Source: an uncultured Bacilli bacterium (GTDB taxonomy: Bacteria; Bacillota_I; Bacilli_A; RF39; UBA660). Taken from it: 48,433 bases of DNA. The notes beneath the pieces are model-generated. The model was not told the origin of the DNA and did no database searches. It worked only from the letters and a program-made list of their open reading frames with translations. The stretch lies in NCBI GenBank assembly GCA_944359025.1, contig CALVSM010000001.1, forward strand, positions 1 through 48,433, in the 5' to 3' direction. The position numbers and the translations under genes are program-made. This document shows positions 2,996 through 28,636 of this stretch, piece by piece (within the stretch, counting starts at the first letter, position 1; each line of letters begins with the position of its first letter).

Positions 2996-4348
2996 ATGAT
3001 TAATCAAACTATTTTTAGAGCTTATGATATTAGAGGTATTTATGAAGAACAAATAACTGATGAAACAGCTTATATTTTAGGTAAAAGTTTTGGTAGTTAT
3101 GTTAAATTAAGAGGCAAAACGGAAGTTTTAGTAGGTTATGACAATAGATTATCTTCACCTGTTTTAGCGGATAATTTAATTAAAGGTTTATTAGAAACTG
3201 GCGTTAATGTAACTAGTTTAGGTTTAGTTACAACGCCAATGTATTATTTTGCAAGACAACATTTAAATAAATGGGCAGCTATTATGATTACTGCTTCACA
3301 TAACCCTAGCAATCATAATGGTTTTAAAATATCATTTGATGAAAGAGGTAATGCTGCTGGCGAAGAAATAATCGAGTTTAGAGATTTTACTAATAAAGGA
3401 GAATTTTTAACAGGTTTAGGAAATTTAACTACTTATGATATTAAGGATGAATATATTAATTTAATTGTTAATAGTTTAAAAATTAATAAAAATATTAAAG
3501 CAGTATTTGACTGTGGTAATGGAACGGTTTCTATTATTATTAAAGAAATATTAGATAAATTAAATATCACTTATGATTTATTATATTGTGATAGTGACCC
3601 TACTTTTCCAAACCATCATCCTGATCCATCTGTAAGTGAAAACTTGGTAGATATTCAAAAAAGAGTAGTTGAACTAGGATATGATATTGGTATTGCTTTA
3701 GATGCTGATGGTGATCGTGTTAGAGTTATCGATGAAAAAGGTAATGTTATTAATTCTGATGTATTTATGATTGTTATGTATCGTTATTTAAATAATAATT
3801 TAAAAGTACGTAAAGCTTTATATGATGTTAAGTGTTCTAAAGCATTAGTTGATGAATTAGAAAAATTAGGTTTAGATCAAATTATGTATCGAACAGGTAA
3901 TTCTTATATGTATCGCAAAATGCATGAAGAAAATTTAGAATTTGGTGGGGAATATTCTGGTCATATGTGGTTTGGCGATAGATTTTATAGTTTCGATGAC
4001 GGCTTATATGCGGGACTTAGAATGATCGAAGTATTATCTAATACTGATAAAAAAATGTCAGATTTAGATAGCGATATAAACATTTACTATTCAACCGATG
4101 AATTAAAAATAAATACAACGGAAGAAAATAAATATAAAATAGTTGAAGAAGTAAAAAAATACGCTATTGCTAAAAATTATAAATATAACGATATTGATGG
4201 AATTAGAGTAGAATTTAATGATGGTTGGGCTTTAGTTAGATATTCAAATACTGGTCCTGTTATAAGTGCAAGATTTGAAGCTAATAGTAATGAAAGATTA
4301 AAAGAAATTAATGATGAATTTATGTCTTTAATTAATAAAATGATATAA
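2996..4348 (+). CDS. Phosphohexomutase (phosphomannomutase/phosphoglucomutase type)
   Basis: Active-site loop TASHNPSNHNGFK, metal loop DADGDR and sugar loop GEYSGH. RBS AAGGAGG. Confidence 0.85.
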   Translation: MINQTIFRAYDIRGIYEEQITDETAYILGKSFGSYVKLRGKTEVLVGYDNRLSSPVLADNLIKGLLETGVNVTSLGLVTTPMYYFARQHLNKWAAIMITASHNPSNHNGFKISFDERGNAAGEEIIEFRDFTNKGEFLTGLGNLTTYDIKDEYINLIVNSLKINKNIKAVFDCGNGTVSIIIKEILDKLNITYDLLYCDSDPTFPNHHPDPSVSENLVDIQKRVVELGYDIGIALDADGDRVRVIDEKGNVINSDVFMIVMYRYLNNNLKVRKALYDVKCSKALVDELEKLGLDQIMYRTGNSYMYRKMHEENLEFGGEYSGHMWFGDRFYSFDDGLYAGLRMIEVLSNTDKKMSDLDSDINIYYSTDELKINTTEENKYKIVEEVKKYAIAKNYKYNDIDGIRVEFNDGWALVRYSNTGPVISARFEANSNERLKEINDEFMSLINKMI

Positions 4349-4429: not shown

Positions 4430-5485
4430 ATGATTGAAAGGTTAAATGCAATCGAAGAAAGATATAATGAAATAAATAATGAATTAATGAATCCGGAAAT
4501 CGTTTCTGATATAAAAAAAACTACAGAATTATCTAAAGAGCAAGCTAGTTTACAAGAGGCCTATGATGCATATCAAGAATATAAAAAACTAAGTTCTGAT
4601 ATTGAAGAAGCTAAAGAATTGGTCAAAGATCCGGAATTAGGTGAATTTGCTAAAGAAGAATTAGAAACAAATCAATTAAAATTAGAACAATTAACTAAAG
4701 ATATCGAAATATTATTACTACCTAAAGATCCTAATGATGGTAAAGATGTAATGGTTGAAATAAGAGGAGCAGCAGGTGGGGATGAAGGAAATATTTTTGC
4801 CGGTGACTTATTCGATATGTATAAAAAATTAGCTGAAAGAAATGGTTGGAAAATTGAGATAGTCGAAGAAGAAAAATCTGAATCTGGGGGATATACATTA
4901 ATCAGTTTTATTGTAAGAGGAGAAAATGTTTATTCTAAATTGAAATATGAATCAGGTGCTCATCGTGTTCAAAGAGTACCAGTTACGGAAACACAAGGTA
5001 GAGTACATACTTCAACAGCAACTGTATTAGTAATGCCAGAAGCAGAAGAATTAGATTGTGATTTAGATATGAACGATGTTAGAATCGATATTACAAGAAG
5101 TAGTGGATGTGGTGGTCAAGGTGTTAATACAACTGATTCAGCAGTAAGACTTACGCATATTCCTACTGGTATTGTTGTTTATTCTCAAACCGAAAGAAGT
5201 CAAATCAAAAATAAAGAAAAAGCAATTAAAATATTACAAACTCGTCTATATGATTTAAAGATGCAAGAACGAGAAAAAGAATTGGGTGAAGAAAGAAGAA
5301 GTAAAATTGGTACAGGTGATAGATCAGAAAAAATAAGAACATATAATTATCCACAAAATAGAGTAACTGATCATCGAATTGGTTTTACTTTAAATACTTT
5401 AGACCGTGTTATGCAAGGTGATATTGATAAAGTAATCGATGCTTTAATTACTGAAGATCAAAATAGAAAATTAAGAGGAGAATAA
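4430..5485 (+). CDS. prfA: Peptide chain release factor 1
   Basis: PVT tripeptide (PVTETQGR) and GGQ motif ([15 protein letters not shown]). The N-terminus [12 protein letters not shown] aligns with RF1 starts, so ATG 4430 is preferred over 4418. Confidence 0.9.
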
Positions 5486-5486
5486 T

Positions 5487-6194
5487 TTGACTGAATTAGA
5501 TTATTTAAAAAAATATTTACCAAAAGAAAAATTAGAAGAAGGAATCCATAAATATCAATTAGGGATTCCTGTTCAGTATATTGTGGGAAATGTTGACTTT
5601 TATGGTAATATTATTGAAGTCAATGAAAATGTTTTAATTCCTCGGTTTGAAACTGAAGAATTAGTAGATCGTGTAATTAAAAGATTAAAAGATAAAATTA
5701 ATTTAGATATTGTCGATTTAGGAACTGGTAGTGGCTGTATAAGTATTGCTTTAGCTAAAAATTTAAATTGTGTGATTGATGCTGTGGATATTTCTAATGC
5801 TGCTTTAGAAGTAGCTAAAAAAAATGCTATTAATAATAATGTTGATATTAATTTTTATTTAGGAGATATGTTAGAACCATTAAATAAAAAATATGATTTA
5901 ATAATAAGTAATCCACCTTATATCGCTTATGATGAAGAAATAATGAATATTGTTAAATATAATGAACCAAGTATTGCTTTATATGCGGATAATGGTGGTT
6001 TATATTATTATGAGCAAATATTAAAAAAATGTGCGAAATATCTTAAAAAAAACAGTTTAATAGCTTTTGAAATCGGTTATAAACAAGCTGAAGCAATTAA
6101 AAAAATAGCTTATAAATATTTAGATTGTGATGTCGAAATTGAACAAGATTTACAAGGTAAAGATCGATATATATTTATTAAATATTTAGGTTAA
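5487..6194 (+). CDS. prmC: Release-factor glutamine N5-methyltransferase
   Basis: SAM motif DLGTGSGCI and NPPY motif (ISNPPYI). It lies directly downstream of prfA. TTG start with an AGGAG RBS. Confidence 0.85.
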   Translation: MTELDYLKKYLPKEKLEEGIHKYQLGIPVQYIVGNVDFYGNIIEVNENVLIPRFETEELVDRVIKRLKDKINLDIVDLGTGSGCISIALAKNLNCVIDAVDISNAALEVAKKNAINNNVDINFYLGDMLEPLNKKYDLIISNPPYIAYDEEIMNIVKYNEPSIALYADNGGLYYYEQILKKCAKYLKKNSLIAFEIGYKQAEAIKKIAYKYLDCDVEIEQDLQGKDRYIFIKYLG

Positions 6195-6207
6195 ATTTGG
6201 GGGATAT

Positions 6208-7053
6208 ATGAAAAAGATATTTATCGTTAATGCTAAAGCTGGTAATGGTAAAGCTAAAGAAATAGCCAATTATTTAAAAAACTTATCTTATTCAAACATA
6301 ATTTATACTGATAATAAACAAGAAACCAATGAGGTAGCTAATTATTTTAAAAATGATGATTGTGTTATATATAGTGTTGGTGGCGATGGTACTTTAAATG
6401 ATGTAGTTAATGGACTAGCTTTAGGTAATGCTTATTTAGGAATAATTCCTTGTGGTAGTGGTAATGATTTTATACGTAATATCAATTTAGAAACTAATAG
6501 TATTAATTTGGGTAAAGTTAATGAACGTTATTTTATCAATGTCGTTTCTTTTGGTATTGATGCAAGTGTAGCCAATAAAGTTAATTTATTGAATCAAAAA
6601 AGTAAATCTAAATTTGTTTATCCTAAAGGAATCTTATTAACATTTCCTTCTTTTAAGCCAGTGGAGTTAACAGTTAATAACGATAATAAAAAAATAACTA
6701 TTTTAGCTATTTGTAATGGTAGTTATTATGGTAATGGCATTAAAATTGCCCCTGGCGCTAATATATGTGATGATAAATTTGATTTATATTTAGTAGAAAA
6801 AGTAAATAAATTAAAGATGCTTTATTTATTTTCTAAATTATTAAAAGGTAATCACGATAAATGTGCTAAAGTTCAAAAAAGTTATGTTACTAATTTGGTT
6901 ATAAATAGTCATAATTCGGTTATTTGTAATATCGATGGTGAAATAATTCAAGATAGTAATTTTAAAATATCTTTGCAAAAAGAAAAAATTAAATATTATC
7001 AAGAAGATGATATTAAGTTGAAAAAACTAATATATCCTTTTATGGGAAAATAA
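6208..7053 (+). CDS. DAGK_cat-family lipid kinase (YegS/DagK-like)
   Basis: GGDGTLN motif and a GSGNDF segment. RBS GGGGGA. Confidence 0.8.
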   Translation: MKKIFIVNAKAGNGKAKEIANYLKNLSYSNIIYTDNKQETNEVANYFKNDDCVIYSVGGDGTLNDVVNGLALGNAYLGIIPCGSGNDFIRNINLETNSINLGKVNERYFINVVSFGIDASVANKVNLLNQKSKSKFVYPKGILLTFPSFKPVELTVNNDNKKITILAICNGSYYGNGIKIAPGANICDDKFDLYLVEKVNKLKMLYLFSKLLKGNHDKCAKVQKSYVTNLVINSHNSVICNIDGEIIQDSNFKISLQKEKIKYYQEDDIKLKKLIYPFMGK

Positions 7054-7122
7054 TATTAGTTTTTTTATTTGGAACTATTTAAAAAAATGAATAAATTTGG
7101 TAAAATTATATTGGTGGTAAAA

Positions 7123-10100
7123 ATGCAAGATAAACTAAAAACTTTATTAGAACAAATTAATTTTGATAACAATTTATTTGTTTTTTTTAACGATGGAAAA
7201 TTAAATAAAATTGTTGGTAATAAAGATAAGACAAAGTATAATTTTTATATTAGTTTAATTGAAACTTTACCAATCGATGTATATACTAATTTTATGGATA
7301 ATTTAAAAAAACACTTTAGTAATTATAAAGTTAAAGTGTCTTTTACTGTGGATAAACAAAATAATGAATTAATCAAAGATTATTACCAATATTTGATTAA
7401 AAAGAATGTCGAGGAATTTCCTTTATTAGAAACATTTTTAGATAATGAAATTAACTATGAAAATAATATTTTAACTATCGAAGTAGCTAATAAAGCCGAA
7501 CAAATGAAATTAGATTCTATAGCTAATAAATTAATTGGTTTACTTGATAGTGTCGGATATGATACTGTTAATATTAATATTGTGGTTAACGAAGCTAAAA
7601 GTGAAGAAATAAGAAAAGAAATTGAACAAGCTAAAACAGTAGAAGTTAAACCAGAAAAAAAGGAAATAATCGAAATAGTAGGAAGTTATATCCCTAAAGT
7701 TACACACGAGATAAGTGGTATTTTTACTGAAGAAGATAATGTCAGTTTAGAAGCTTATGTATTTGAGGTTGATATTTTTGAATCTAGTAAAACTAATTTT
7801 AAAGTATTTACTTTAAAAATAACCGATTTTACGGATAGTATGTATGCTAAATTATTTGTTAAAGAACAAAGTGATTTTGATTTTTATAAGAAACATATAA
7901 AAAGTAATACTTGGTATAAATTTAGAGGATATACTAAATTTGATAAATATTCCAATGAAATAGTTTTAAATATAAGAGACTTAAATAAAAGCGATAAAGT
8001 AATTGAAACACCTAAAGATGAAGAAGAAGAAAAAAGAGTGGAATTACATGCTCATACAATGATGAGTCAAATGGATGGGGTTGTTGATGCTAAAACATTA
8101 GTAAAACAAGCTTATAAATGGGGACATAAAGCAATCGCTATAACTGATCATAATGGTGTTCAAGCGTATCCAGATGTTTACCACTTAGTTTGTGATTTAA
8201 ACAAAGGGAAAGAAGAAAATGAAAAGTTTAAAGCCATATATGGTGCGGAATTTACTTTAATTGATGATAGTGTTAATATTGTCGTAAGAGAAAATGATAG
8301 TATTTTATTAGATAATACTTATGTGGTATTTGATTTTGAAACTACTGGTTTTAATGCTGGTGGTGGGGATACGATTATCGAAATTGGTGCAGTTAAAATT
8401 CATAACGGGGAAATAATTGATAGATTTAACGAGTTAATTAATCCTGGAAGAAATTTACCACGTAAAATAACCGAAGTAACTAATATTACCGATGATATGT
8501 TAAAAGATAAAGATAACGAAGAAAATGCGATTAAAAGATTTATTAAATGGTTTGAAGATTTACCAATGGTAGCGCATAATGCGAAATTCGATGTATCTTT
8601 TTTAGAGATGTGTTATCAAAAATATAATTTAGGGGAATTTAAAAATATCGTTATCGATACTTTAGAATTATCAAGAGTCTTAGATAATAATTATGCTCGC
8701 CATAATTTAACGGCTTTGGTTAAACGATATGATGTTCCTTGGGATGAAGATTCCCATCACCGCGCCGATTATGACGCTGAAGGAACAGCTTTAGTATTTC
8801 ATAAAATGATGCAAAAGCTATCTAGTCAAAATATCGAAAAAGTATCACAATTAAATAAAATGATCGATAAAAGTGAAATTCATAAATATGGCCGAAGTTA
8901 TCATGTTAATATTTTAGTTAAAAATAAAACAGGTTTAAAAAACTTATTTAAAATAGTATCTTTAGCTAATACAAAATATTTATATAAAACACCTAGAATT
9001 TTAAGAAGTGTTTTAAATGAATTAAGAGATGGCTTATTAATTGGTAGTGGTTGTTATGAAAGTGAAGTATTTGTCGAAGCTAAAAGTAAATCGGATGAAG
9101 AGTTAGCCAATATCATTAATTTTTATGATTATGTTGAAGTACAACCGTTAGATGTTTATAACCATATGTTGCAAACAAATGATTTTGGTTCAATTAGTGA
9201 ACTGATGGAACACATTAGAAAAATTATTAGAGTAACAAAAGATTCCGGTAAATTAATCGTCGCTACTGGTGACGTTCATCATTTATTTAAAGAAGATAAA
9301 ATTTATCGGGAAATAATTGTTAATCAAAAAGTACCTGGTGGTGGAAGGCATCCTTTAGCTAAAAATAATATTACGGAAATACCTAGCCAACATTTTCGCA
9401 CAACTAAAGAAATGTTAGATGATTTTGATTTTTTAGATGAAGAAACTAAAAAAGAAATAGTTATAACTAACCCTAATAAAATAGCTGATATGGTTGATAT
9501 AATCGAAGTTATTATTGAAACTGGAGGTGTTCCATTTTCTCCTAAAATCGATAAATCAGTCGAGACAGTAACAGAATTAGTTTATAATAAAGCTAAAGAT
9601 TGGTATGGTGATCCATTACCTTATAATATTGAAGAAAGAATTGCTAAAGAATTATATGGCGATGGTATATTTGATAGTATTAAAGCGGAACTTAAAAGAA
9701 ACAATGTCGAAAATATAACGGAAGAATCTTTTAAAATATTACACGATACTATTTTAAAAGGTTTTGATGCGGTTAAAGATAAAATTAAAAACGAATTAAA
9801 AATTCAAGAACCAGAAATAGATGATCAAGAATTAGAAAAAAAATTAAAGAAAACATTAGGTGGTATTATCGGTGGGGGCTTTGATGTTATTTACTTAATC
9901 GCTCAAAAATTAGTTAAAAAATCTAATGATGATGGTTATTTAGTTGGCTCACGTGGTTCTGTTGGTTCAAGTTTTGTCGCTACTATGATGGGTATTACTG
10001 AAGTTAACCCCTTACCAGCCCATTATCGTTGCCCAAATTGTAAGCATAGTATTTTTGAATTAGATAGTCAACCTTTAGCTAATACTTATTCTTCCGGTTT

Positions 10101-21225: not shown

Positions 21226-22428
21226 ATGATAAAAAGGGAAAAATATTTAACAAAAATTAGAGAATTTTATGATATTGACTTAATTAAGGTAATTACTGGA
21301 ATTAGAAGATGTGGGAAATCAATTTTATTAAAACAAATTATCGAAGAATTAAAAGAAAAAGGAATCGATAATAATCAAATAATTTATATTAATTTTGAAG
21401 ATGTTGAATATGCCTTTATTAAAGACTACCTAGATTTGAATAAATATGTCAAAGAAAAAATAAAAAATTCTTCTAAACATTATTTATTTTTTGATGAAAT
21501 TCAAATGGTAAATGATTGGGAGAAAGCTATTAACTCATTTAAAGCCACTTTAAATGTTTCTATTTTTGTTACTGGATCTAATTCTAAATTATTATCAGGA
21601 GAATTAGCAACTCTTTTATCAGGACGATATGTTGCTTTTAATTTAGCGCCTTTTTCTTTTGAAGAGGTAATTCAATACAAAAATATAACTGATAAACAAG
21701 AAATAGAGATAGCATTTAATGATTATTTGTTGTGGGGTGGGATGCCACAGCGTTTTGACCTACCAAGTGAAGAAGCTACTAAAATATATTTAATGGATGT
21801 TTTTGATGCAATTGTTTTAAAGGATATTGTAAGAAGGCATAATATAAAAAATGTTAATATATTTAAAAGAATAATGGAGTATTTAGTAACTAATCCTAGT
21901 CAAACATTTTCTCCGACTAATATGATTAAAGAATTTACTAAAGAGCAAATTCCTATTTCGGCTAAAACTATTTATGATTGTTTAGAATATGCTTTAGAAG
22001 CTTTATTAATGAATAAAATATCTACCTATGATGTAAGGGGCAAAAGAATTTTAACCCGTAAAGATAAATATTATTTGACTGATTTAGGTTTAGGGCAAAT
22101 TCTAAATATTAATAAAAAAACGCAGTTTGGAGCTTATTTAGAAAATATTGTCTATAATGAATTGATTTATCGAGGATATGATGTAAGTATCGGTAATAAT
22201 AATGGTAAAGAAATTGATTTTGTAGCTACTAAATATAATCAAAAGGAATATTACCAAGTTACTTATACTTTGGCTAATGAAGAGACAGAAAAAAGGGAAT
22301 TTTCTGCATTTGATGATATTAAAGACAATTATCCTAAATATGTTATTTCAACTGATAAGTTAGATTATTCGCAAAATGGTATTATCCATAAAAATATAAT
22401 TGATTGGTTATTGAAAGAAGAAAGTTGA
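21226..22428 (+). CDS. AAA_14 ATPase with a C-terminal DUF4143 (PD-(D/E)xK-like) domain, COG1373 type
   Basis: Walker A GIRRCGKS, Walker B HYLFFDEIQ, and a C-terminal GKEIDFV...YYQV nuclease-like motif. Confidence 0.8.
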   Translation: MIKREKYLTKIREFYDIDLIKVITGIRRCGKSILLKQIIEELKEKGIDNNQIIYINFEDVEYAFIKDYLDLNKYVKEKIKNSSKHYLFFDEIQMVNDWEKAINSFKATLNVSIFVTGSNSKLLSGELATLLSGRYVAFNLAPFSFEEVIQYKNITDKQEIEIAFNDYLLWGGMPQRFDLPSEEATKIYLMDVFDAIVLKDIVRRHNIKNVNIFKRIMEYLVTNPSQTFSPTNMIKEFTKEQIPISAKTIYDCLEYALEALLMNKISTYDVRGKRILTRKDKYYLTDLGLGQILNINKKTQFGAYLENIVYNELIYRGYDVSIGNNNGKEIDFVATKYNQKEYYQVTYTLANEETEKREFSAFDDIKDNYPKYVISTDKLDYSQNGIIHKNIIDWLLKEES

Positions 22429-22436
22429 TGTTTTAA

Positions 22437-22913
22437 ATGAAAAAAATTTTAAACATAGGTTATATTATATTATTTTTATTTTTAATTTTAATGTTGTATT
22501 TAGAATATGATAATTATAAAAACTTAAATTTTAAAATTGACGCTAGAAATTATTCTAATGAAATAGAAAAGTTAAAAAATAATCTTAATATTATTAGTAA
22601 TTATGATATTGATAATCATGAATTAACAGTAACAATAAATAGGTGTCAAAATAGTATAAAATATAAAGATATATTAAATAAGGATTTTATTACTATTGCC
22701 GATATTTATTATATTAATCAAAATAGTGCTAGTGGAGTATGTAATGGTATGAATTATGGTATCGAAAATTCATATGAAAAGAAAAATGTTGATTTGAATC
22801 AATATATAAATATATATAACGATAAAAATATCGAAGAATCATTAAAAATAACATTAAATAATGAAATAAATATAACATCAGCTTTTATAGAAATGGTGGA
22901 AAGTTATGAATAA
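22437..22913 (+). CDS. Membrane-anchored hypothetical protein (158 aa)
   Basis: Single N-terminal TM helix and an Asn/Ile/Lys-rich ectodomain. It starts 8 nt after the ATPase stop. Confidence 0.5.
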   Translation: MKKILNIGYIILFLFLILMLYLEYDNYKNLNFKIDARNYSNEIEKLKNNLNIISNYDIDNHELTVTINRCQNSIKYKDILNKDFITIADIYYINQNSASGVCNGMNYGIENSYEKKNVDLNQYINIYNDKNIEESLKITLNNEINITSAFIEMVESYE

Positions 22914-23583
22914 GTTTAATTTAATCTTAAATTTTATCGTTGTTATTGGTTTATTTATTATCGATGGTTTGACTGGCAGTATTTTAGGACTATTTTCGGT
23001 TACTTTATTGTTATTATTGCCTAAAATTAGAGGAATATTGTTGGATAAAGAGATTAATTCTAATTTTATGTATGAAATATTAGAATTTTTAATAAATATA
23101 TATTTGATATTTATAATTTTAAGAGCATTATTTGATAACTCATTAAATTTTAATAATTTTAATGTTTTTACTTATAATTATATGGTTATTCGCCTATTAT
23201 TAATAAATTTATTATTAATACTATTAAATTTATTATTAGTTAAAAATCATAATATAAAAAATAAAATTAATGTGGATGATTTTAAGTTTGGTTATGGGAT
23301 ATTTTTTATATCTTTACTGGGCATGTATTTTTCTTTTACTAGATATTCCAATTTTAATATGATTGTTAAGTTGATTTTTTGTATTTTAAGTATTTATTTT
23401 TATTTTAAATTATTTGAATCGTTAAAATATAAAGAAAGTGGATTCTTTTTCGCTTTAATGATAGCTATTTTGGGAATATTGTTAAGTAATGAACTATTAA
23501 TATTAGGATTTATAAGGTTTTTCGCAGTAACTTATAAACACGATAAAATAATTTTGTCGAATAAAAAAAATAATATTAGATGA
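22906..23583 (+). CDS. Polytopic membrane protein of unknown function (225 aa)
   Basis: About 6 hydrophobic segments, RBS GGTGGA, and an 8-nt overlap with the preceding ORF. Confidence 0.55.
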   Translation: MNKFNLILNFIVVIGLFIIDGLTGSILGLFSVTLLLLLPKIRGILLDKEINSNFMYEILEFLINIYLIFIILRALFDNSLNFNNFNVFTYNYMVIRLLLINLLLILLNLLLVKNHNIKNKINVDDFKFGYGIFFISLLGMYFSFTRYSNFNMIVKLIFCILSIYFYFKLFESLKYKESGFFFALMIAILGILLSNELLILGFIRFFAVTYKHDKIILSNKKNNIR

Positions 23584-23614
23584 AAATTCTAATATTTTTT
23601 ATTAGGTGATAATA

Positions 23615-26176
23615 ATGGGACTAACGGATAATGAAGTGATTGAATCAAGAAAGAAGTTTGGTTCTAATATAATAAATTCAAGTAAGAGAAATAGTTTTAT
23701 AAAACAATATATTGCAACTTTAGGTGACCCAATTATTAGAATTTTATTAATTGCTTTGGGTATTAAAACCGTTTTTTTAATTCAAAGTTTTGATTGGTAT
23801 GAAACAGTAGGAATCGTTATTGCTATTTTTTTGGCTTCTTTTATTTCGACAGTTAGTGAATATGGTAGCGAGAAAGCTTTTGAAAAATTACAAGAAGAAT
23901 CTTCAAAAATAAAATGTCGAGTATTAAGAAATAATAAAATTGAAGAAGTTGATATCGAAGATGTTGTTGTTGGGGATATTGTATTATTGGAATCTGGCGA
24001 CAAGATTCCAGCTGATGGTGAGATTATCGAAGGAGAGATTAGTGTTGATGAGTCTAGTTTGACAGGTGAAACAAAAGAAGTATATAAAAATATAGAAGAA
24101 AAACTAGTTTTTAGAGGAACAATTGTTTATTCTAAACAAGCTAAAATGATTGTTACTAAAGTTGGCGATAATACTTTTTATGGAGCAATTTCAAAAGAAT
24201 TACAACAAGAGCAACCCGAAAGTCCACTTAAATTAAGATTAAGAAAATTAGCGCAAATAATTAGTAAAATTGGTTATATTGGAGCTTTTTTGGTTTTTAT
24301 TTCTTATTTATTTTCGGTTATTTTTATAAAAAATAATTTTAATATTGATTTAATTAAAGAAACAGTCACTAATTTACCGTTAATAAGTGGTCATATTTTA
24401 TATGCTTTAACTTTATGTGTAACGGTAATCGTAGTAGCAGTTCCCGAAGGATTGCCGATGATGATTACCTTAGTTTTATCTTCCAATGTTAAAAGAATGC
24501 TTAAAAATAATGTTTTGGTTAGAAAGTTAACAGGAATAGAGACAGCTGGAAGTATTAATATTTTATTTAGTGATAAAACAGGAACAATTACTAAAGGTAA
24601 TTTAGAAGTAACTCATTTTTTAGATAGTGATTTAAAAAAATATGATAGTTTTGATAAAATTGATAGTAATTTAAAAGAAATAGCTTTAATTTCGTTAGTA
24701 TATAACAATGCAAGTTGTTATGATAAAGATAAAATTATCGGAGGAAATATTACGGATCGAGCTATTTTAAAATTTACTAATATTAAAAATAAAAGTAATT
24801 ATGATATTATCGATACTGTTCCTTTCGATAGTAAAAATAAATACTCTTCGACTACAATTAAATATAAAAATGAAAATGTTTATTTAATTAAGGGAGCTCC
24901 TGAAGTTATTTTAAAAAAATGTGAATTTTATTTTGATAAGGAAGGCAATAAAAAGTTTTTAAAAAAGAAGTTAATTATTGAAGATAATTTAAAAAAATTA
25001 ACTAAAGAAGGTAATCGAATAATAGCTTTTGCATCTTCTATGGAACATACTAAAAATTTAACTTTAGTTGGTTTTGTTTTAATAAAAGATGAAATTAGAA
25101 AAGAAGCCTTTGAAGGTATTGACTTAGTAAAAAAAGCTTCGATTCAAACCGTTATGGTAACTGGTGATAATAAATTAACTGCTTTAGCTATTGCTAAAGA
25201 AGTTGGTCTATATCAAGATGGCGATTTAATTTTAACTAGTGATGAGATGAAAAATATGTCTGATGAGAAGTTAAAAGAAGTTTTGCCGAAATTAAGAGTG
25301 GTAGCTAGGGCGATTCCTCAAGATAAAAGTAGATTAGTTAGAATTAGTCAAGAATTAGATTTAGTAGTTGGAATGACGGGGGATGGCGTTAATGATGCTC
25401 CAGCTTTAAAAAGAGCCGATGTTGGTTTTGCTTTTGGTTCTGGTACGGAAGTTGCTAAAGAAGCTAGTGAAATCGTTATTTTAGATAATAATTTTTTATC
25501 GATAGCTAAAGCAATTTTATTTGGTCGAACTATTTTTAAAAGTATTCGTAAATTTATAATTTTTCAACTAACAGTTAATATATGTGCAGTAAGTTTATCG
25601 ATAATAGGGCCTTTTATTGGTGTAGATACCCCAGTTACAGTTATTCAAATGTTGTGGATAAATATGGTAATGGATACTTTAGCGGCTTTAGCTTTCTCTT
25701 TTGAAGCACCTTTAAAAGAATATATGTGCGAATTACCGAAAAAAAGAGATGAACCAATTATTAATCAATATATGAAAGATGAAATATTATTTACGGGAAT
25801 TTATTCAACTTTAATTTGTATTTTATTTTTAAAGTTACCTATTTTTCATCAGTTATTTAGAAGTGGTGAACAATATCTTTTAACTGCTTTCTTCGGTTTG
25901 TTTATATTTATTAGTATATTTAATAGTTTCAATGCGAGAACTCATCGTTTAAATTTATTGTCACATTTAAGTTTAAATAAAGCTTTTATATTTATTATTA
26001 GTTTTATTGTTATTGTACAAATTCTATTAATTTATTTTGGTGGGAATTTATTTAGAACTTCAGGCCTTACTTTCTTTGAATTTCAAATTATGTTTTGGTT
26101 AAGTTTTACAGTTGTACCAGTTGATTTTTTAAGAAAGATTTATTTAAGAAAAAAAGGAATAATTGGTGGTGTATAA
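23615..26176 (+). CDS. Calcium-type (P2A-like) cation-transporting P-type ATPase
   Basis: DKTGTIT phosphorylation site, PEGLP, TGDN and GDGVNDAPAL motifs. ATG 23615 is preferred, with AGGTG 7 nt upstream. Confidence 0.9.
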   Translation: MGLTDNEVIESRKKFGSNIINSSKRNSFIKQYIATLGDPIIRILLIALGIKTVFLIQSFDWYETVGIVIAIFLASFISTVSEYGSEKAFEKLQEESSKIKCRVLRNNKIEEVDIEDVVVGDIVLLESGDKIPADGEIIEGEISVDESSLTGETKEVYKNIEEKLVFRGTIVYSKQAKMIVTKVGDNTFYGAISKELQQEQPESPLKLRLRKLAQIISKIGYIGAFLVFISYLFSVIFIKNNFNIDLIKETVTNLPLISGHILYALTLCVTVIVVAVPEGLPMMITLVLSSNVKRMLKNNVLVRKLTGIETAGSINILFSDKTGTITKGNLEVTHFLDSDLKKYDSFDKIDSNLKEIALISLVYNNASCYDKDKIIGGNITDRAILKFTNIKNKSNYDIIDTVPFDSKNKYSSTTIKYKNENVYLIKGAPEVILKKCEFYFDKEGNKKFLKKKLIIEDNLKKLTKEGNRIIAFASSMEHTKNLTLVGFVLIKDEIRKEAFEGIDLVKKASIQTVMVTGDNKLTALAIAKEVGLYQDGDLILTSDEMKNMSDEKLKEVLPKLRVVARAIPQDKSRLVRISQELDLVVGMTGDGVNDAPALKRADVGFAFGSGTEVAKEASEIVILDNNFLSIAKAILFGRTIFKSIRKFIIFQLTVNICAVSLSIIGPFIGVDTPVTVIQMLWINMVMDTLAALAFSFEAPLKEYMCELPKKRDEPIINQYMKDEILFTGIYSTLICILFLKLPIFHQLFRSGEQYLLTAFFGLFIFISIFNSFNARTHRLNLLSHLSLNKAFIFIISFIVIVQILLIYFGGNLFRTSGLTFFEFQIMFWLSFTVVPVDFLRKIYLRKKGIIGGV

Positions 26177-26423
26177 AAAAAACAGAAATTATTTTTTCTG
26201 CTTTATCAACACTTTATAATCGGTATTTTTAGCTGGTGAATCTAATATAAGCATCTCATCACCGGCTTTTTTTGTTTCTTCAAATGTTTCTTTAATATGT
26301 TCACGCCATTTTTCTAAACTTGGTTGATTAAACATCAAATATTGTTGTGAGAAGTGAGTACAATTACATAAAACGATAAAGAAATTTTTATTTTCTTCGT
26401 TAGATTTTTTAATAATTAAGGTT
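26176..26423. repeat. Direct repeat copy 1 (248 bp, 246/248 identical to 27967..28214)
   Basis: Base-by-base comparison at offset 1791. The only mismatches are 26346 T vs 28137 C and 26404 A vs 28195 C. Confidence 0.95.
26189..26423 (-). pseudogene. Displaced 3' fragment (codons 142-218) of the 218-aa gene at 27980..28636
   Basis: It lies within repeat copy 1. There is no start codon, and an in-frame TAG sits three codons upstream of the junction. It carries two nonsynonymous differences from the intact gene (A148S, R167Q). Confidence 0.85.
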
Positions 26424-26568
26424 ACACACTATAATAAAAATTTAATTGCTTTTAACTTTATACATTTTTAATAAAAAGAAAAATAGGGCTCCATCAGTTA
26501 AGACAGTGCCCTTGCAAAAATGATTTAACATTTTTTCCTTGCATAGATAATATAGCATATATTTTTAC

Positions 26569-27576
26569 CTATGTCAAACTATTTTGGTCAATATTTACAT
26601 TATATTGATTTTGAATTATTTTATCAAAATAACTATATATTGATTTTAATAGTTCATTATTATTATAGTATTCTTTATGTATAATTATTCGTTTATAAAA
26701 TAAATTATTAATTTCATTAGCAATATTTTTTTTAATACCTAAACTAGTTACAACTTCGTTAAACATATATAATGTATAAGTTATTTGTCTTATTCTTGAA
26801 TTACTTAATTTATTATCTCTAGTTTCTTTTTTAATTTTACAATTGTTTAAGTAATTAATTATCTTATAATCTGGATTATATGTATTGTCTTTTCTGTCTA
26901 AATCACATAAAACGCAAGAATTATGTGCTACTGCATTTCTCAGTTTTACTATGTCCCTCAAAATAAATACATTTTTAAGTTCGTTTTTTAGTTTGTATTC
27001 TTTGGAAAAAAATTCATAAAAATTTACTAGTTCGCCAAATGTTATTATTTCAAGAAATTCCCAAATGGGTATATTATCTAATTTTTTATCTTTATCAATA
27101 TCATATTTAGAAAATATTTTATTATAGTATTCACTTCCTACTTTTTTAAATATACTATTATGTACTTTTTTGGGGAATTTTTCATCATTGAAATCTTTTT
27201 CGAGGTATAGATTAACTATTTTATATCCATCCTCTTCGAGGATATTTTCAATTAAATTTAATATTCTTATTTTTAAATAATGTTCAATGTTGATTATTAT
27301 TTTAAATAATAATAATCTAACTCTGTAATCAATAATTGCTAAATCTTTAAGATACGCAAAATCTAAATTAATATATTTATCGATAAATTTACCATCAATA
27401 AAATATCTTTCAAAATTATGTTTATAAGAGGTTAAATTATAATAGTTATTATTATCTCTTAAATATTTTTCTGCTTCTGCCTCTGTTATTATTTCAAATT
27501 TAATATTTTTATTTTTAAGATAAGGGACCATTTCACTGATTTTCATCATAGGTCTTTTTTCATTTACTATCATCAT
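26569..27576 (-). CDS. Abi_2-family (AbiD/AbiF-like) abortive-infection protein with a HEPN Rx4H motif
   Basis: DFAYLKDLAIIDYRVRLLLFKIIINIEHYLK, WEFLEIITFGELVNFYEF and LRNAVAHNS (an Rx4H motif) match the Abi_2 layout. RBS GGGAG lies upstream of ATG 27576. Confidence 0.8.
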   Translation of the reverse strand: MMIVNEKRPMMKISEMVPYLKNKNIKFEIITEAEAEKYLRDNNNYYNLTSYKHNFERYFIDGKFIDKYINLDFAYLKDLAIIDYRVRLLLFKIIINIEHYLKIRILNLIENILEEDGYKIVNLYLEKDFNDEKFPKKVHNSIFKKVGSEYYNKIFSKYDIDKDKKLDNIPIWEFLEIITFGELVNFYEFFSKEYKLKNELKNVFILRDIVKLRNAVAHNSCVLCDLDRKDNTYNPDYKIINYLNNCKIKKETRDNKLSNSRIRQITYTLYMFNEVVTSLGIKKNIANEINNLFYKRIIIHKEYYNNNELLKSIYSYFDKIIQNQYNVNIDQNSLT

Positions 27577-27966
27577 ATCACTCCCTAAATACTAAAAGAT
27601 ATTATAACAACATTATGGCATATATTATTTTAGAACAAATAGTTTAATATTTACTAAATCAATATACTTTTCCATTTTTTCATCACTTGTTAGTTAATTA
27701 TATCACGCGAACATATATTTGTAAATGTTTTTTCTATGATTTAATTATTTTCGCAATTTTTTATATAAAAAATAACTAATATTAAAATAAATATGCGTTT
27801 TTCATATTCTAAATGCAAAGTAAAAAAAGTTATTAATAAAGATATAATGAATAATATAAATCATAATAATTTTAATGGTCGTACTATTTTTAAATATATA
27901 AATTGCAATGTTAGAATGTATCTTATTGCGATTAAAGTTGATTATTAATTTTATTTTCTATTGGTT

Positions 27967-27991
27967 AAAAAAACAGAAATTATTTTTTCTG
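27967..27991 (-). terminator. Hairpin terminator of the 218-aa gene. A duplicate at 26176..26200 directly follows the ATPase stop.
   Basis: CAGAAA-TTATTT-TTTCTG with a 7-8 nt A run on the plus strand, which is a T run for the minus-strand transcript. Confidence 0.55.
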
Positions 27992-28214
27992 CTTTATCAA
28001 CACTTTATAATCGGTATTTTTAGCTGGTGAATCTAATATAAGCATCTCATCACCGGCTTTTTTTGTTTCTTCAAATGTTTCTTTAATATGTTCACGCCAT
28101 TTTTCTAAACTTGGTTGATTAAACATCAAATATTGTCGTGAGAAGTGAGTACAATTACATAAAACGATAAAGAAATTTTTATTTTCTTCGTTAGCTTTTT
28201 TAATAATTAAGGTT
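27967..28214. repeat. Direct repeat copy 2 (248 bp), forming the functional 3' end and terminator of the 218-aa gene
   Basis: See copy 1. Confidence 0.95.
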
Positions 28215-28636
28215 GTGGCTTCACAAGGTAAGATACCCACTAACAAGTCATATTGGCTAACTGAATCTTTAATATTGAAATCTTTTTTTACTAATTTAAT
28301 GCCTGATAAATTTTGGGTTACTAACATTTTATCATATACGGTAATAGTGCCTTTTTTAGTTTGTAATTGTCGATTGTGGACATGGGTAGCAAAAGCTGGA
28401 TAAAAGCCACCACCAATTTCTAATATGTTAGAAGAGATATCAAAGTACTTTTCTAATAATTTTAAATAATCAGCATAAGGGATTTCATCTTTATACATTC
28501 CTAAAGCATCATATACTTGATTTAATATATCTGGGTTATCTAAAGGTAACATTTTCCCAAAATTATTCATAATATATTCAACGGCAGCTGGTGGATATTG
28601 TGTTTTATATTTAGCTAAAAATTCTTTTAAGTACAT
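27980..28636 (-). CDS. Hypothetical protein with a Rossmann/SAM-methyltransferase-like motif I
   Basis: ILEIGGGFYP resembles methyltransferase motif I (hhDhGxGxG). RBS AGGGGG. No confident family assignment. Confidence 0.6.
   Translation of the reverse strand: MYLKEFLAKYKTQYPPAAVEYIMNNFGKMLPLDNPDILNQVYDALGMYKDEIPYADYLKLLEKYFDISSNILEIGGGFYPAFATHVHNRQLQTKKGTITVYDKMLVTQNLSGIKLVKKDFNIKDSVSQYDLLVGILPCEATTLIIKKANEENKNFFIVLCNCTHFSRQYLMFNQPSLEKWREHIKETFEETKKAGDEMLILDSPAKNTDYKVLIKQKK

Follow-up and report, generated by a model that had tools for sequence, protein, structure and literature searches.

Many defence genes lie in chromosomal hotspots without nearby mobile-element genes, and how they arrived there has mostly been inferred. 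Here we analyse a stretch of 48,433 nt from an uncultured Bacilli bacterium (contig CALVSM010000001.1 of assembly GCA_944359025.1; the whole stretch is hereafter called the window), in which a 1,543-bp insert carrying a single gene of the Abi_2/AbiD type sits between two copies of a 248-bp direct repeat, at the junction of a P-type cation ATPase gene and a gene for a 218-aa protein. To our knowledge, insertion accompanied by duplication of a target segment is not among the general routes described for the movement of defence genes. The locus provides a clean case, with a filled site, empty sites from the same species and a 248-bp scar, and it points to ordinary host recombination.

Several described systems resemble parts of this arrangement. 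Campbell-type (insertion-duplication) integration is a laboratory route by which non-replicating plasmids enter a chromosome through a homologous single crossover, and it is related to 'ends-in' recombination. As at the locus studied here, it leaves a target segment directly repeated, with one copy continuous with the gene and the second truncated and displaced, its empty site amounts to one copy, it can be reversed by recombination between the repeats and it needs no dedicated recombinase. Unlike the laboratory case, the event in the window is natural, polymorphic in the population and concerns defence cargo, and the same cargo family is flanked elsewhere by repeats of 55 to 1,749 bp or, mostly, by none. 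Some integrative elements likewise insert at gene 3′ ends, and integrase-less forms derived from them include CIMEs (cis-mobilizable elements), satellites and tycheposon-like islands. These are alike in that they leave the gene restored, have a displaced fragment as their distal repeat and carry defence-related cargo, whereas the insert in the window has no integrase, its repeat is long and identical to the host at the level of alleles, and conserved element ends are lacking.

A further parallel comes from arrays of effector–immunity genes of the type VI secretion system (T6SS) and of Rhs/CdiA orphan tips, where a host-homologous anchor is combined with illegitimate joining of the other end and the old 3′ part is pushed downstream; homology-facilitated illegitimate recombination was proposed for the T6SS displacement arrays (Kirchberger et al. 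2017, PMC5361080). In the window, by contrast, what has been displaced duplicates the 3′ end of that very gene exactly and is no different variant, an unrelated defence gene serves as cargo in place of a C-terminal domain with its immunity gene, and the neighbour is unchanged. Transformation-driven interchromatid integration is known to create duplications in pneumococcus (PMC3784515). Core defence hotspots of Pseudomonas aeruginosa are reported to lie between conserved core genes without mobile-element genes (PMC10250203). As in the window, such hotspots hold variable defence cargo between conserved flanks, with exchange presumed to proceed by homologous recombination in the flanks; the window differs in holding a single gene with an explicit 248-bp duplication scar rather than a simple replacement between flanks. 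Finally, the AbiF protein of the Clostridioides difficile phi027 prophage is preceded by a 100-nt RNA, RCd22, which has two abiF motifs and binds the toxin directly to neutralise it (Saunier et al. 2025, PMC12373285).

The insertion and its empty sites

A scan of the window for direct repeats (at least 40 bp, at least 90% identity, 0.2–6 kb apart), together with alignment of the copies and their flanks, recovered a pair at 26176–26423 and 27967–28214 that is identical at 246 of 248 positions with a spacing of 1791 bp. This reproduces the pair on which the original prediction, made by reading the letters of the window, was built. Similarity between the copies drops abruptly at either boundary, and since this pair is the sole dispersed direct repeat of at least 40 bp and 90% identity across the 48.4-kb window, it is not a product of chance. 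The repeat comprises the 77 terminal codons, stop codon, hairpin and U7–8 run of the minus-strand gene at 27980..28636, the target whose 3′ end was duplicated. The function of this gene is unassigned: its 218-aa product gave no Pfam, NCBIfam or PADLOC match, and its family is rare, with 29 proteins. Copy 2 (27967..28214, minus strand) is contiguous with the intact gene and forms its functional 3′ end and terminator, and both the open reading frames (ORFs) and the folding agree with the prediction on this point. The terminator hairpin, CAGAAA/UUUCUG extended to 10 bp, has a folding energy of −8 to −10 kcal/mol (z −3 to −4.9); the stop codon of the 218-aa gene sits inside its loop, and at the ancestral junction the U-run touches the stop codon of the ATPase.

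Copy 1 (26176..26423, minus strand) is the displaced 3′ fragment of the 218-aa gene, with the same 77 codons, stop, hairpin and U-run. It adjoins the stop codon of the P-type cation ATPase (23606..26176, plus strand; identified from the ORF list and from Pfam E1-E2_ATPase, Cation_ATPase_C and related domains), which is the left neighbour of the insertion site. As had been proposed, it lacks a start codon, a TAG lies in frame directly upstream of its inner boundary (...TAG TGT GTA ACC...), and it still supplies a terminator beside the ATPase. Between the copies lie 1,543 bp with one gene of the Abi_2/AbiD abortive-infection type on the minus strand (26569..27576; 335 aa, or 334 aa from the second ATG; Pfam and PADLOC). 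The gene is preceded by a very AT-rich, non-coding upstream part of 390 bp (27577..27966, minus strand; ORF list, promoter scan and strain comparison). It is followed by a structured RNA element at its 3′ end (26469..26582, minus strand; conservation, covariation and a covariance model) and by a distal right part of about 45 nt (26424..26468, minus strand) that is present only in this species' insertion. The ORF list and Pfam also bear out the predicted single Abi_2 ORF with about 390 bp of upstream non-coding DNA and no recombinase gene.

Two contigs of the same species carry the empty site: L010 (43,954 bp), which encodes an identical 853-aa ATPase, and L003, which encodes an identical 218-aa protein. 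The flanks of the window are moreover syntenic with contigs L001 and L002, from metagenome-assembled genomes of two related species of uncultured Bacilli (79% protein identity), where the 218-aa gene and the ATPase are convergent and 11 nt apart. In all four contigs the stop codon, hairpin and T-run of the 218-aa gene stand directly against the ATPase stop, and the empty site corresponds to exactly one repeat copy, so that removal of one repeat unit indeed yields the ancestral locus, as had been predicted. Base-by-base comparison identified the copy 1/ATPase junction as ancestral and the outer flank of copy 2 as new DNA.

Filled sites were equally recurrent. Six further contigs, from other samples, carry an identical or near-identical Abi protein at the same place. 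L004 begins with 54 nt of copy 2 and continues across the insert and a complete copy 1 into the ATPase, and L005 and L006 run from a UvdE gene through the 218-aa gene, copy 2 and the insert to end 75 nt into copy 1. The same 248-bp boundary was found in all seven contigs of the species. The repeat–insert–repeat order is thus a real insertion that is polymorphic in the species, seen on single contigs from independent assemblies.

The two copies differ by A148S (GCT to TCT) and R167Q (CGA to CAA), with no difference in the last 170 nt of the repeat, and at both sites copy 2 has the base of the related species, that is, the ancestral one. The prediction was right that both changes are nonsynonymous; its reading of them as pseudogene decay does not hold for R167Q, because the intact genes of L005 and L006 and the empty-site contig L010 have this allele (A at 28137/26346) as well, which marks it as standing polymorphism. 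A148S (T at 26404) is confined to the displaced copies of the window, L005 and L006, and is not present in the displaced copy of L004. At position 28001/26210 both window copies have G and both L004 copies have A. Since the copies are 99.2% identical, within the species' own allele variation, and track their own genome, the duplicated segment is conspecific DNA.

These observations bear on whether the duplication was made by the metagenome assembler from strain variants. Every contig is a short-read metagenome assembly, and the identical last 170 nt of the copies could create ambiguous paths in the assembly graph. Nevertheless, seven contigs from different samples and assemblers hold either repeat–insert–repeat or both new junctions, the insert is joined to codon 141 of the 218-aa gene on single contigs (L004, L005 and L006), and A148S marks displaced copies only, in three contigs. 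Contigs end about one k-mer into the repeat, which is where short-read assemblers are expected to stop at a genuine repeat. An assembly artefact is accordingly extremely unlikely.

The flanking DNA gives a view of recombination at the locus. On the ATPase side, strains differ by about 0.4% outside one 1-kb block, the background being about 0.4–0.8%. Within that block (23000–24000) the window and L004 differ by 108 mismatches in 1 kb. The block spans the gene of a 225-aa membrane protein (22906..23583) together with the beginning of the ATPase gene, and it resembles either DNA imported by recombination from a diverged lineage or a fast-evolving surface gene; homologous recombination with diverged DNA would, judging by this block, appear to be active at the locus. 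The filled contig L004 and the empty contig L010 have nine single nucleotide polymorphisms (SNPs) in common against the filled window, and so the presence or absence of the insert does not track the flank haplotype. This mismatch fits repeated loss through the repeats, and is equally explained by exchange of filled and empty alleles through homologous recombination.

Comparison of the locus in relatives, suggested with the original prediction, thus yielded empty sites; of the alternative cargo that it had envisaged, none of a defence type was seen at the ATPase/218-aa junction in relatives at 68% and 73% identity, the latter having different neighbours. In the relative at 68% identity for the 218-aa protein (L071, 5661–6027), the junction spacer is 367 nt instead of 11 and contains a decayed small ORF on the opposite strand, which indicates that other DNA has occupied this junction in a different lineage.

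The Abi module in other gene contexts

The protein encoded in the insert matches Pfam PF07751 (Abi_2) at 87 bits against a cut-off of 25.6 (E = 2.6e-24, profile positions 5–182 of 184) and PADLOC AbiD at 1.2e-17. It contains the HEPN-type Rx4-6H motif as R-N-A-V-A-H within KLRNAVAHNS, and the motif is kept in the homologues at loci L038 and L039. A total of 881 homologues were detected, many of them 78–87% identical, in gut and animal metagenomes; a search by sequence returned no solved structure.

We compared 43 metagenome loci plus seven more, grouping contexts by clustering of the neighbouring proteins. Abi homologues occupy at least 12 unrelated gene contexts, for example downstream of recG, downstream of a gene for a 306-aa protein, beside a cation-efflux gene or between a pair of large, paralogous genes for surface proteins. 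Across contexts, DNA similarity extends from about 27556, just inside the coding sequence, to 26465–26479, and the 390-bp upstream segment and the last ~45 nt of the insert were found in this species only. The proposal of a 1,791-bp cassette as the minimal unit therefore has to be abandoned, as only the coding sequence and some 95–110 nt beyond its stop codon are common to the contexts. From these comparisons, the conserved module measures about 1.15 kb and consists of the proximal promoter, the Abi gene and the 3′ RNA element, and the 1,791-bp segment is not a discrete element. The remainder of the insert, including 26424–26468, is probably flanking DNA carried along from a former location.

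Strain variation within the insert follows a similar division. The upstream segment contains a ribosome-binding site and promoter-like sites, namely an extended −10 sequence TGTTATAAT at 27609–27601 and TTTACA-17-TATAAT at 27725–27697, and it varies between strains from 27618 outward. Mismatch-free stretches run from 26471 to 27617 in L004 and from 26541 to 27617 in L005, and the outer parts of the insert show 5–11 differences per 390 bp between strains, with SNPs at 26449 and 26470. For the SNP-free core, about five differences would be expected per comparison and 0–1 were observed, which is suggestive, not compelling. A 51-aa ORF on the plus strand of the upstream segment (27793..27948) is probably spurious. 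A candidate remnant of the ATPase in the same segment, a 24-nt GRTIFK match (25522/27876), was discarded, the tblastn result being at chance level (best E ~0.03).

At two loci downstream of recG (L050 and L051, ~6001–6420), only the last ~100 Abi codons and the RNA element are left. Other genomes keep the full gene in the same context, and L050 and L051 are thus erosion intermediates of the module.

Bracketing repeats were surveyed, with the thresholds given above for the window, in the window and in all loci of at least 4 kb, 471 kb in total. The only repeat pairs found were that of the window (and of the conspecific partial contigs) and those of L039 and L055, each of which brackets a member of this Abi family. 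The L039 repeat (55 bp, 98%) runs from just before the stop codon of the upstream gene, through its terminator and the downstream promoter, to just before the ribosome-binding site; judging from this layout, the L039 insertion would likewise leave both neighbours equipped. In relatives of this locus (L061–L068), three extra genes are present, and what remains of the module is a solo RNA element joined to the terminal ~20 nt of the Abi gene.

The L055 repeat (771–2519 and 4773–6521; GCA_948539605.1, CAOUSD010000034.1) is 1,749 bp long, at 99.66% identity, and corresponds to the 5′ 1.75 kb of adjacent paralogous genes for proteins of 729 and 759 aa. These paralogues, which have weak TSP1-repeat matches, have a common 5′ untranslated region and first ~567 codons and differ in their C-terminal parts, with the Abi module between them; the arrangement is reminiscent of C-terminal displacement that carried the Abi gene as a passenger. 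In three other samples, contigs L056–L058 start 34–81 nt inside one copy of this repeat, and L056 and L057 end 62–100 nt inside the other, that is, they span the insert from repeat to repeat.

Three further candidates were set aside. At L038, a 204-bp similarity (78%) proved to be a dispersed non-coding repeat with three copies and not a target duplication; its copies of about 200 nt (5584–5787, 7105–7306 and 3630–3692), which flank the Abi gene of that locus, end in a terminator and show compensatory stem differences (GGAGCC/GGCUCC vs GGACGC/GCGUCC), and they may represent a small-RNA gene family or a dispersed repeat element. The L037 pair (42 bp at 88%) was too weak to count, and the 166-bp repeat of L054 brackets the neighbouring cation-efflux gene, not the Abi gene.

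How the insertion may have arisen

With confidence that is evenly balanced, we lean towards a Campbell-type or homology-anchored duplication-insertion by host homologous recombination, a mechanism inferred from the structure of its product. A 1,543-bp fragment would have entered the 11-nt junction of the convergent ATPase and 218-aa genes, and the event would have duplicated a 248-bp target segment that comprises the 3′ end and terminator of the 218-aa gene. The incoming DNA would have held the Abi module and a stretch of the 218-aa gene of the same species, either as a small circle (a Campbell single crossover) or as a linear homology-anchored or 'ends-in' fragment, with host homologous recombination acting and a dedicated recombinase not involved. 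The alleles of the repeat copies are compatible with such a donor, short of being decisive. Recombination between the repeats would restore the empty site precisely and make the insertion reversible; such reversibility is consistent with the polymorphism of the locus, and the empty sites are equally explained by allelic replacement. Whichever route was taken, the junction has no free space, so that only a product that duplicates the segment keeps both genes and both terminators intact. Selection would favour exactly this architecture, and this would explain the survival of the product.

The Campbell-type topology formed part of the original prediction and has stood; the other option given there, in which an element brings a replacement 3′ end, is unlikely in the phage or ICE sense because the repeat lies within the allele variation of the species. 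The same evidence bears on a decayed or non-autonomous site-specific element (CIME- or satellite-like), mobilised by an integrase in trans, for which the 248-bp repeat would be attL/attR with the 3′ end supplied by the element. The topology is the classical one, with insertion at the 3′ end of a gene, restoration of the gene and a displaced fragment at the far end, and the insert is polymorphic within the species. However, an element-borne mimic would be expected to diverge, whereas the 248 bp are 99.2% identical and inseparable from the species' alleles, which argues against an att site as much as against an element-borne 3′ end. The insert encodes no integrase, its only ORF of at least 60 aa being the Abi gene, and nothing suggestive of an integrase was seen in the 48-kb window, most ORFs of which were not scanned against domain libraries. 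No terminal inverted repeats occur at the ends of the insert, where the best inverted alignment scores 13 against a shuffle mean of 14.1, and blastn of the 1,543-bp insert against 50,697 phage and 72,556 plasmid records returned no match. The window contains no tRNA or tmRNA target. Independent insertions have no element ends or att core in common: flanks and repeats differ in every one of the at least 12 contexts, no att-like flank recurs, and the repeats of other sites are unrelated and of other lengths. Taken with these results, a site-specific element is very improbable. Repeat lengths of 55, 248 and 1,749 bp also differ from the fixed short target-site duplication of transposons, insertion sequences and miniature inverted-repeat transposable elements.

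Several points weigh against the preferred route through homologous recombination. Among the seven contigs of the species, no donor molecule, no circle and no R-X configuration without copy 1 was found. The junctions have no informative microhomology: the ATTGGT match reported in the original prediction exists, and it is no better than chance, was picked post hoc and is required by none of the models. The 55-bp repeat of L039 is short for an efficient RecA-dependent crossover. No true empty site was found for the L039 or L055 contexts, and without one for L039 its 55-bp repeat is not confirmable as a target duplication. Most Abi contexts (at least 20) have no bracketing repeat, and a duplication-free route must therefore also exist. 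The enrichment test on the 471-kb survey was post hoc. Lastly, end joining or template switching without incoming homology would give the same final structure.

One further feature of the junctions is that AACC starts both the repeat and the inserted DNA in gene orientation (28214–28211 and 27966–27963, minus strand). Given the base composition, its chance probability is about 0.2–0.4%; it was noticed post hoc and is accounted for by none of the models considered.

The main alternative, which is possible though we consider it rather unlikely, is a homology-independent duplication-insertion: the Abi fragment would have been captured either by end joining between sister chromatids with staggered breaks or, at the terminator hairpin, by a switch of replication template, and each route would produce a long duplication of the target whose length varies. 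This reading would accommodate the wide variation of repeat lengths between contexts and the context-specific extra DNA on either side of the module, which is like that of an arbitrarily cut fragment. The repeats of the window and L039 both include a terminator hairpin, that of the window ending exactly at the end of the U-run, and both copies of one genome carry that genome's allele at 28001/26210. Set against this are the absence of microhomology at either new junction and the polymorphic position 28137/26346, at which the window copies differ; this is easier to understand if one copy came from another strain, though later allelic exchange could have the same outcome. Direct evidence for such a pathway in these organisms is, moreover, absent.

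The 248-bp repeat might also be the trimmed remnant of a larger duplication (for example a whole-gene or multi-gene tandem duplication or a merodiploid) that trapped an Abi fragment and was later cut down. The partial gene copy of 1,749 bp at L055 could represent an earlier stage, the relatives of L039 are deletion derivatives that keep the last ~20 nt of the Abi gene and the RNA element, and transformation-induced tandem duplications have been documented in Streptococcus pneumoniae (PMC3784515). This explanation is improbable, as it requires an extra deletion whose end was placed so that no other trace stays, still requires a mechanism for the initial insertion, and meets a uniform 248-bp boundary in all seven contigs of the species.

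A structured RNA at the 3′ end of the Abi gene

The RNA element downstream of the Abi gene (26469–26582, minus strand) forms three hairpins, of which the last is GC-rich and constitutes an intrinsic terminator with a U-run. It is 80–92% conserved in every context, next to each Abi gene (L011–L060). The Abi stop codon lies inside the conserved ATAGTTTGACAT, with TGnTATATT 17 nt further on, and the promoter scan identified a promoter-like TTGACA-17-TGnTATATT that overlaps the stop codon and the first helix. Over 30 distinct sequences, the three-helix model has standard pairs in 91.4% of cells, compared with 40–52% when the partners are slid by 1–3 columns; 11 of its 26 pairs are changed on both sides, and its covariation was reached by none of 500 shuffles. 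The many G-U pairs on the Abi sense strand point to an RNA and not to a DNA hairpin.

A covariance model (R1) matched the window at 26469–26582 with 124.8 bits and found exactly one copy beside each of the 27 Abi genes searched. It gave no copy in the empty-site loci or elsewhere in the window, and solo copies occur in L061, L063 and L065 (3830–3941), where the Abi gene is deleted. Rfam returned only sub-threshold noise for the 3′ RNA and the upstream region, and the abiF motif (RF03085) had no match in 26000–28400 or 26430–26620 at E values up to 5–10.

The closest counterpart is the AbiF–RCd22 pair introduced above. In both cases a structured RNA of roughly 100 nt, with a sigma-A-type promoter of its own and an intrinsic terminator, accompanies in tight linkage a single-gene HEPN protein of the Abi_2 family. 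RCd22, however, lies upstream of its gene and carries abiF motifs (RF03085), whereas the RNA of the window lies downstream, overlaps the stop codon and has a different, three-hairpin fold without an Rfam match; and C. difficile abiF belongs to a prophage lysis module, while the Abi gene of the window is a stand-alone chromosomal insertion. By analogy, the 3′ RNA is a candidate regulatory or antitoxin-like RNA. From its family membership and the AbiF–RCd22 precedent we infer that the cargo may be a HEPN RNase toxin, which the adjacent RNA would restrain or regulate and phage infection would release.

A further gene lies about 4 kb from the Abi insertion, at 21226–22428 (plus strand). It encodes a 400-aa AAA_14/DUF4143 ATPase that matches the PADLOC candidate defence family PDC-S01 (1.6e-150), has no flanking repeat and is missing at the syntenic position in L001 and L002. 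It therefore represents a second variable defence-type gene near the insertion.

On a broader view, which is tentative and on balance doubtful, the Abi_2 gene and its 3′ RNA might together be a recombinase-less mobile module that repeatedly enters compact junctions in gut Bacilli through target duplications of 55–1,749 bp, leaving the neighbours functional and the event precisely reversible, with the 3′ RNA as a new class of RNA partner (a type III-like antitoxin or a regulator) for Abi_2/HEPN toxins. Two leads emerge: bracketing repeats that recur around this Abi family, and a 3′ RNA without annotation. The covarying RNA would extend the RNA control of Abi_2/AbiF toxins with a different RNA in a different position. 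Should the recurrence of the scar hold in a larger survey, it would provide a general mechanism, open to testing, by which gut Firmicutes with reduced genomes gain single-gene defences and lose them precisely.

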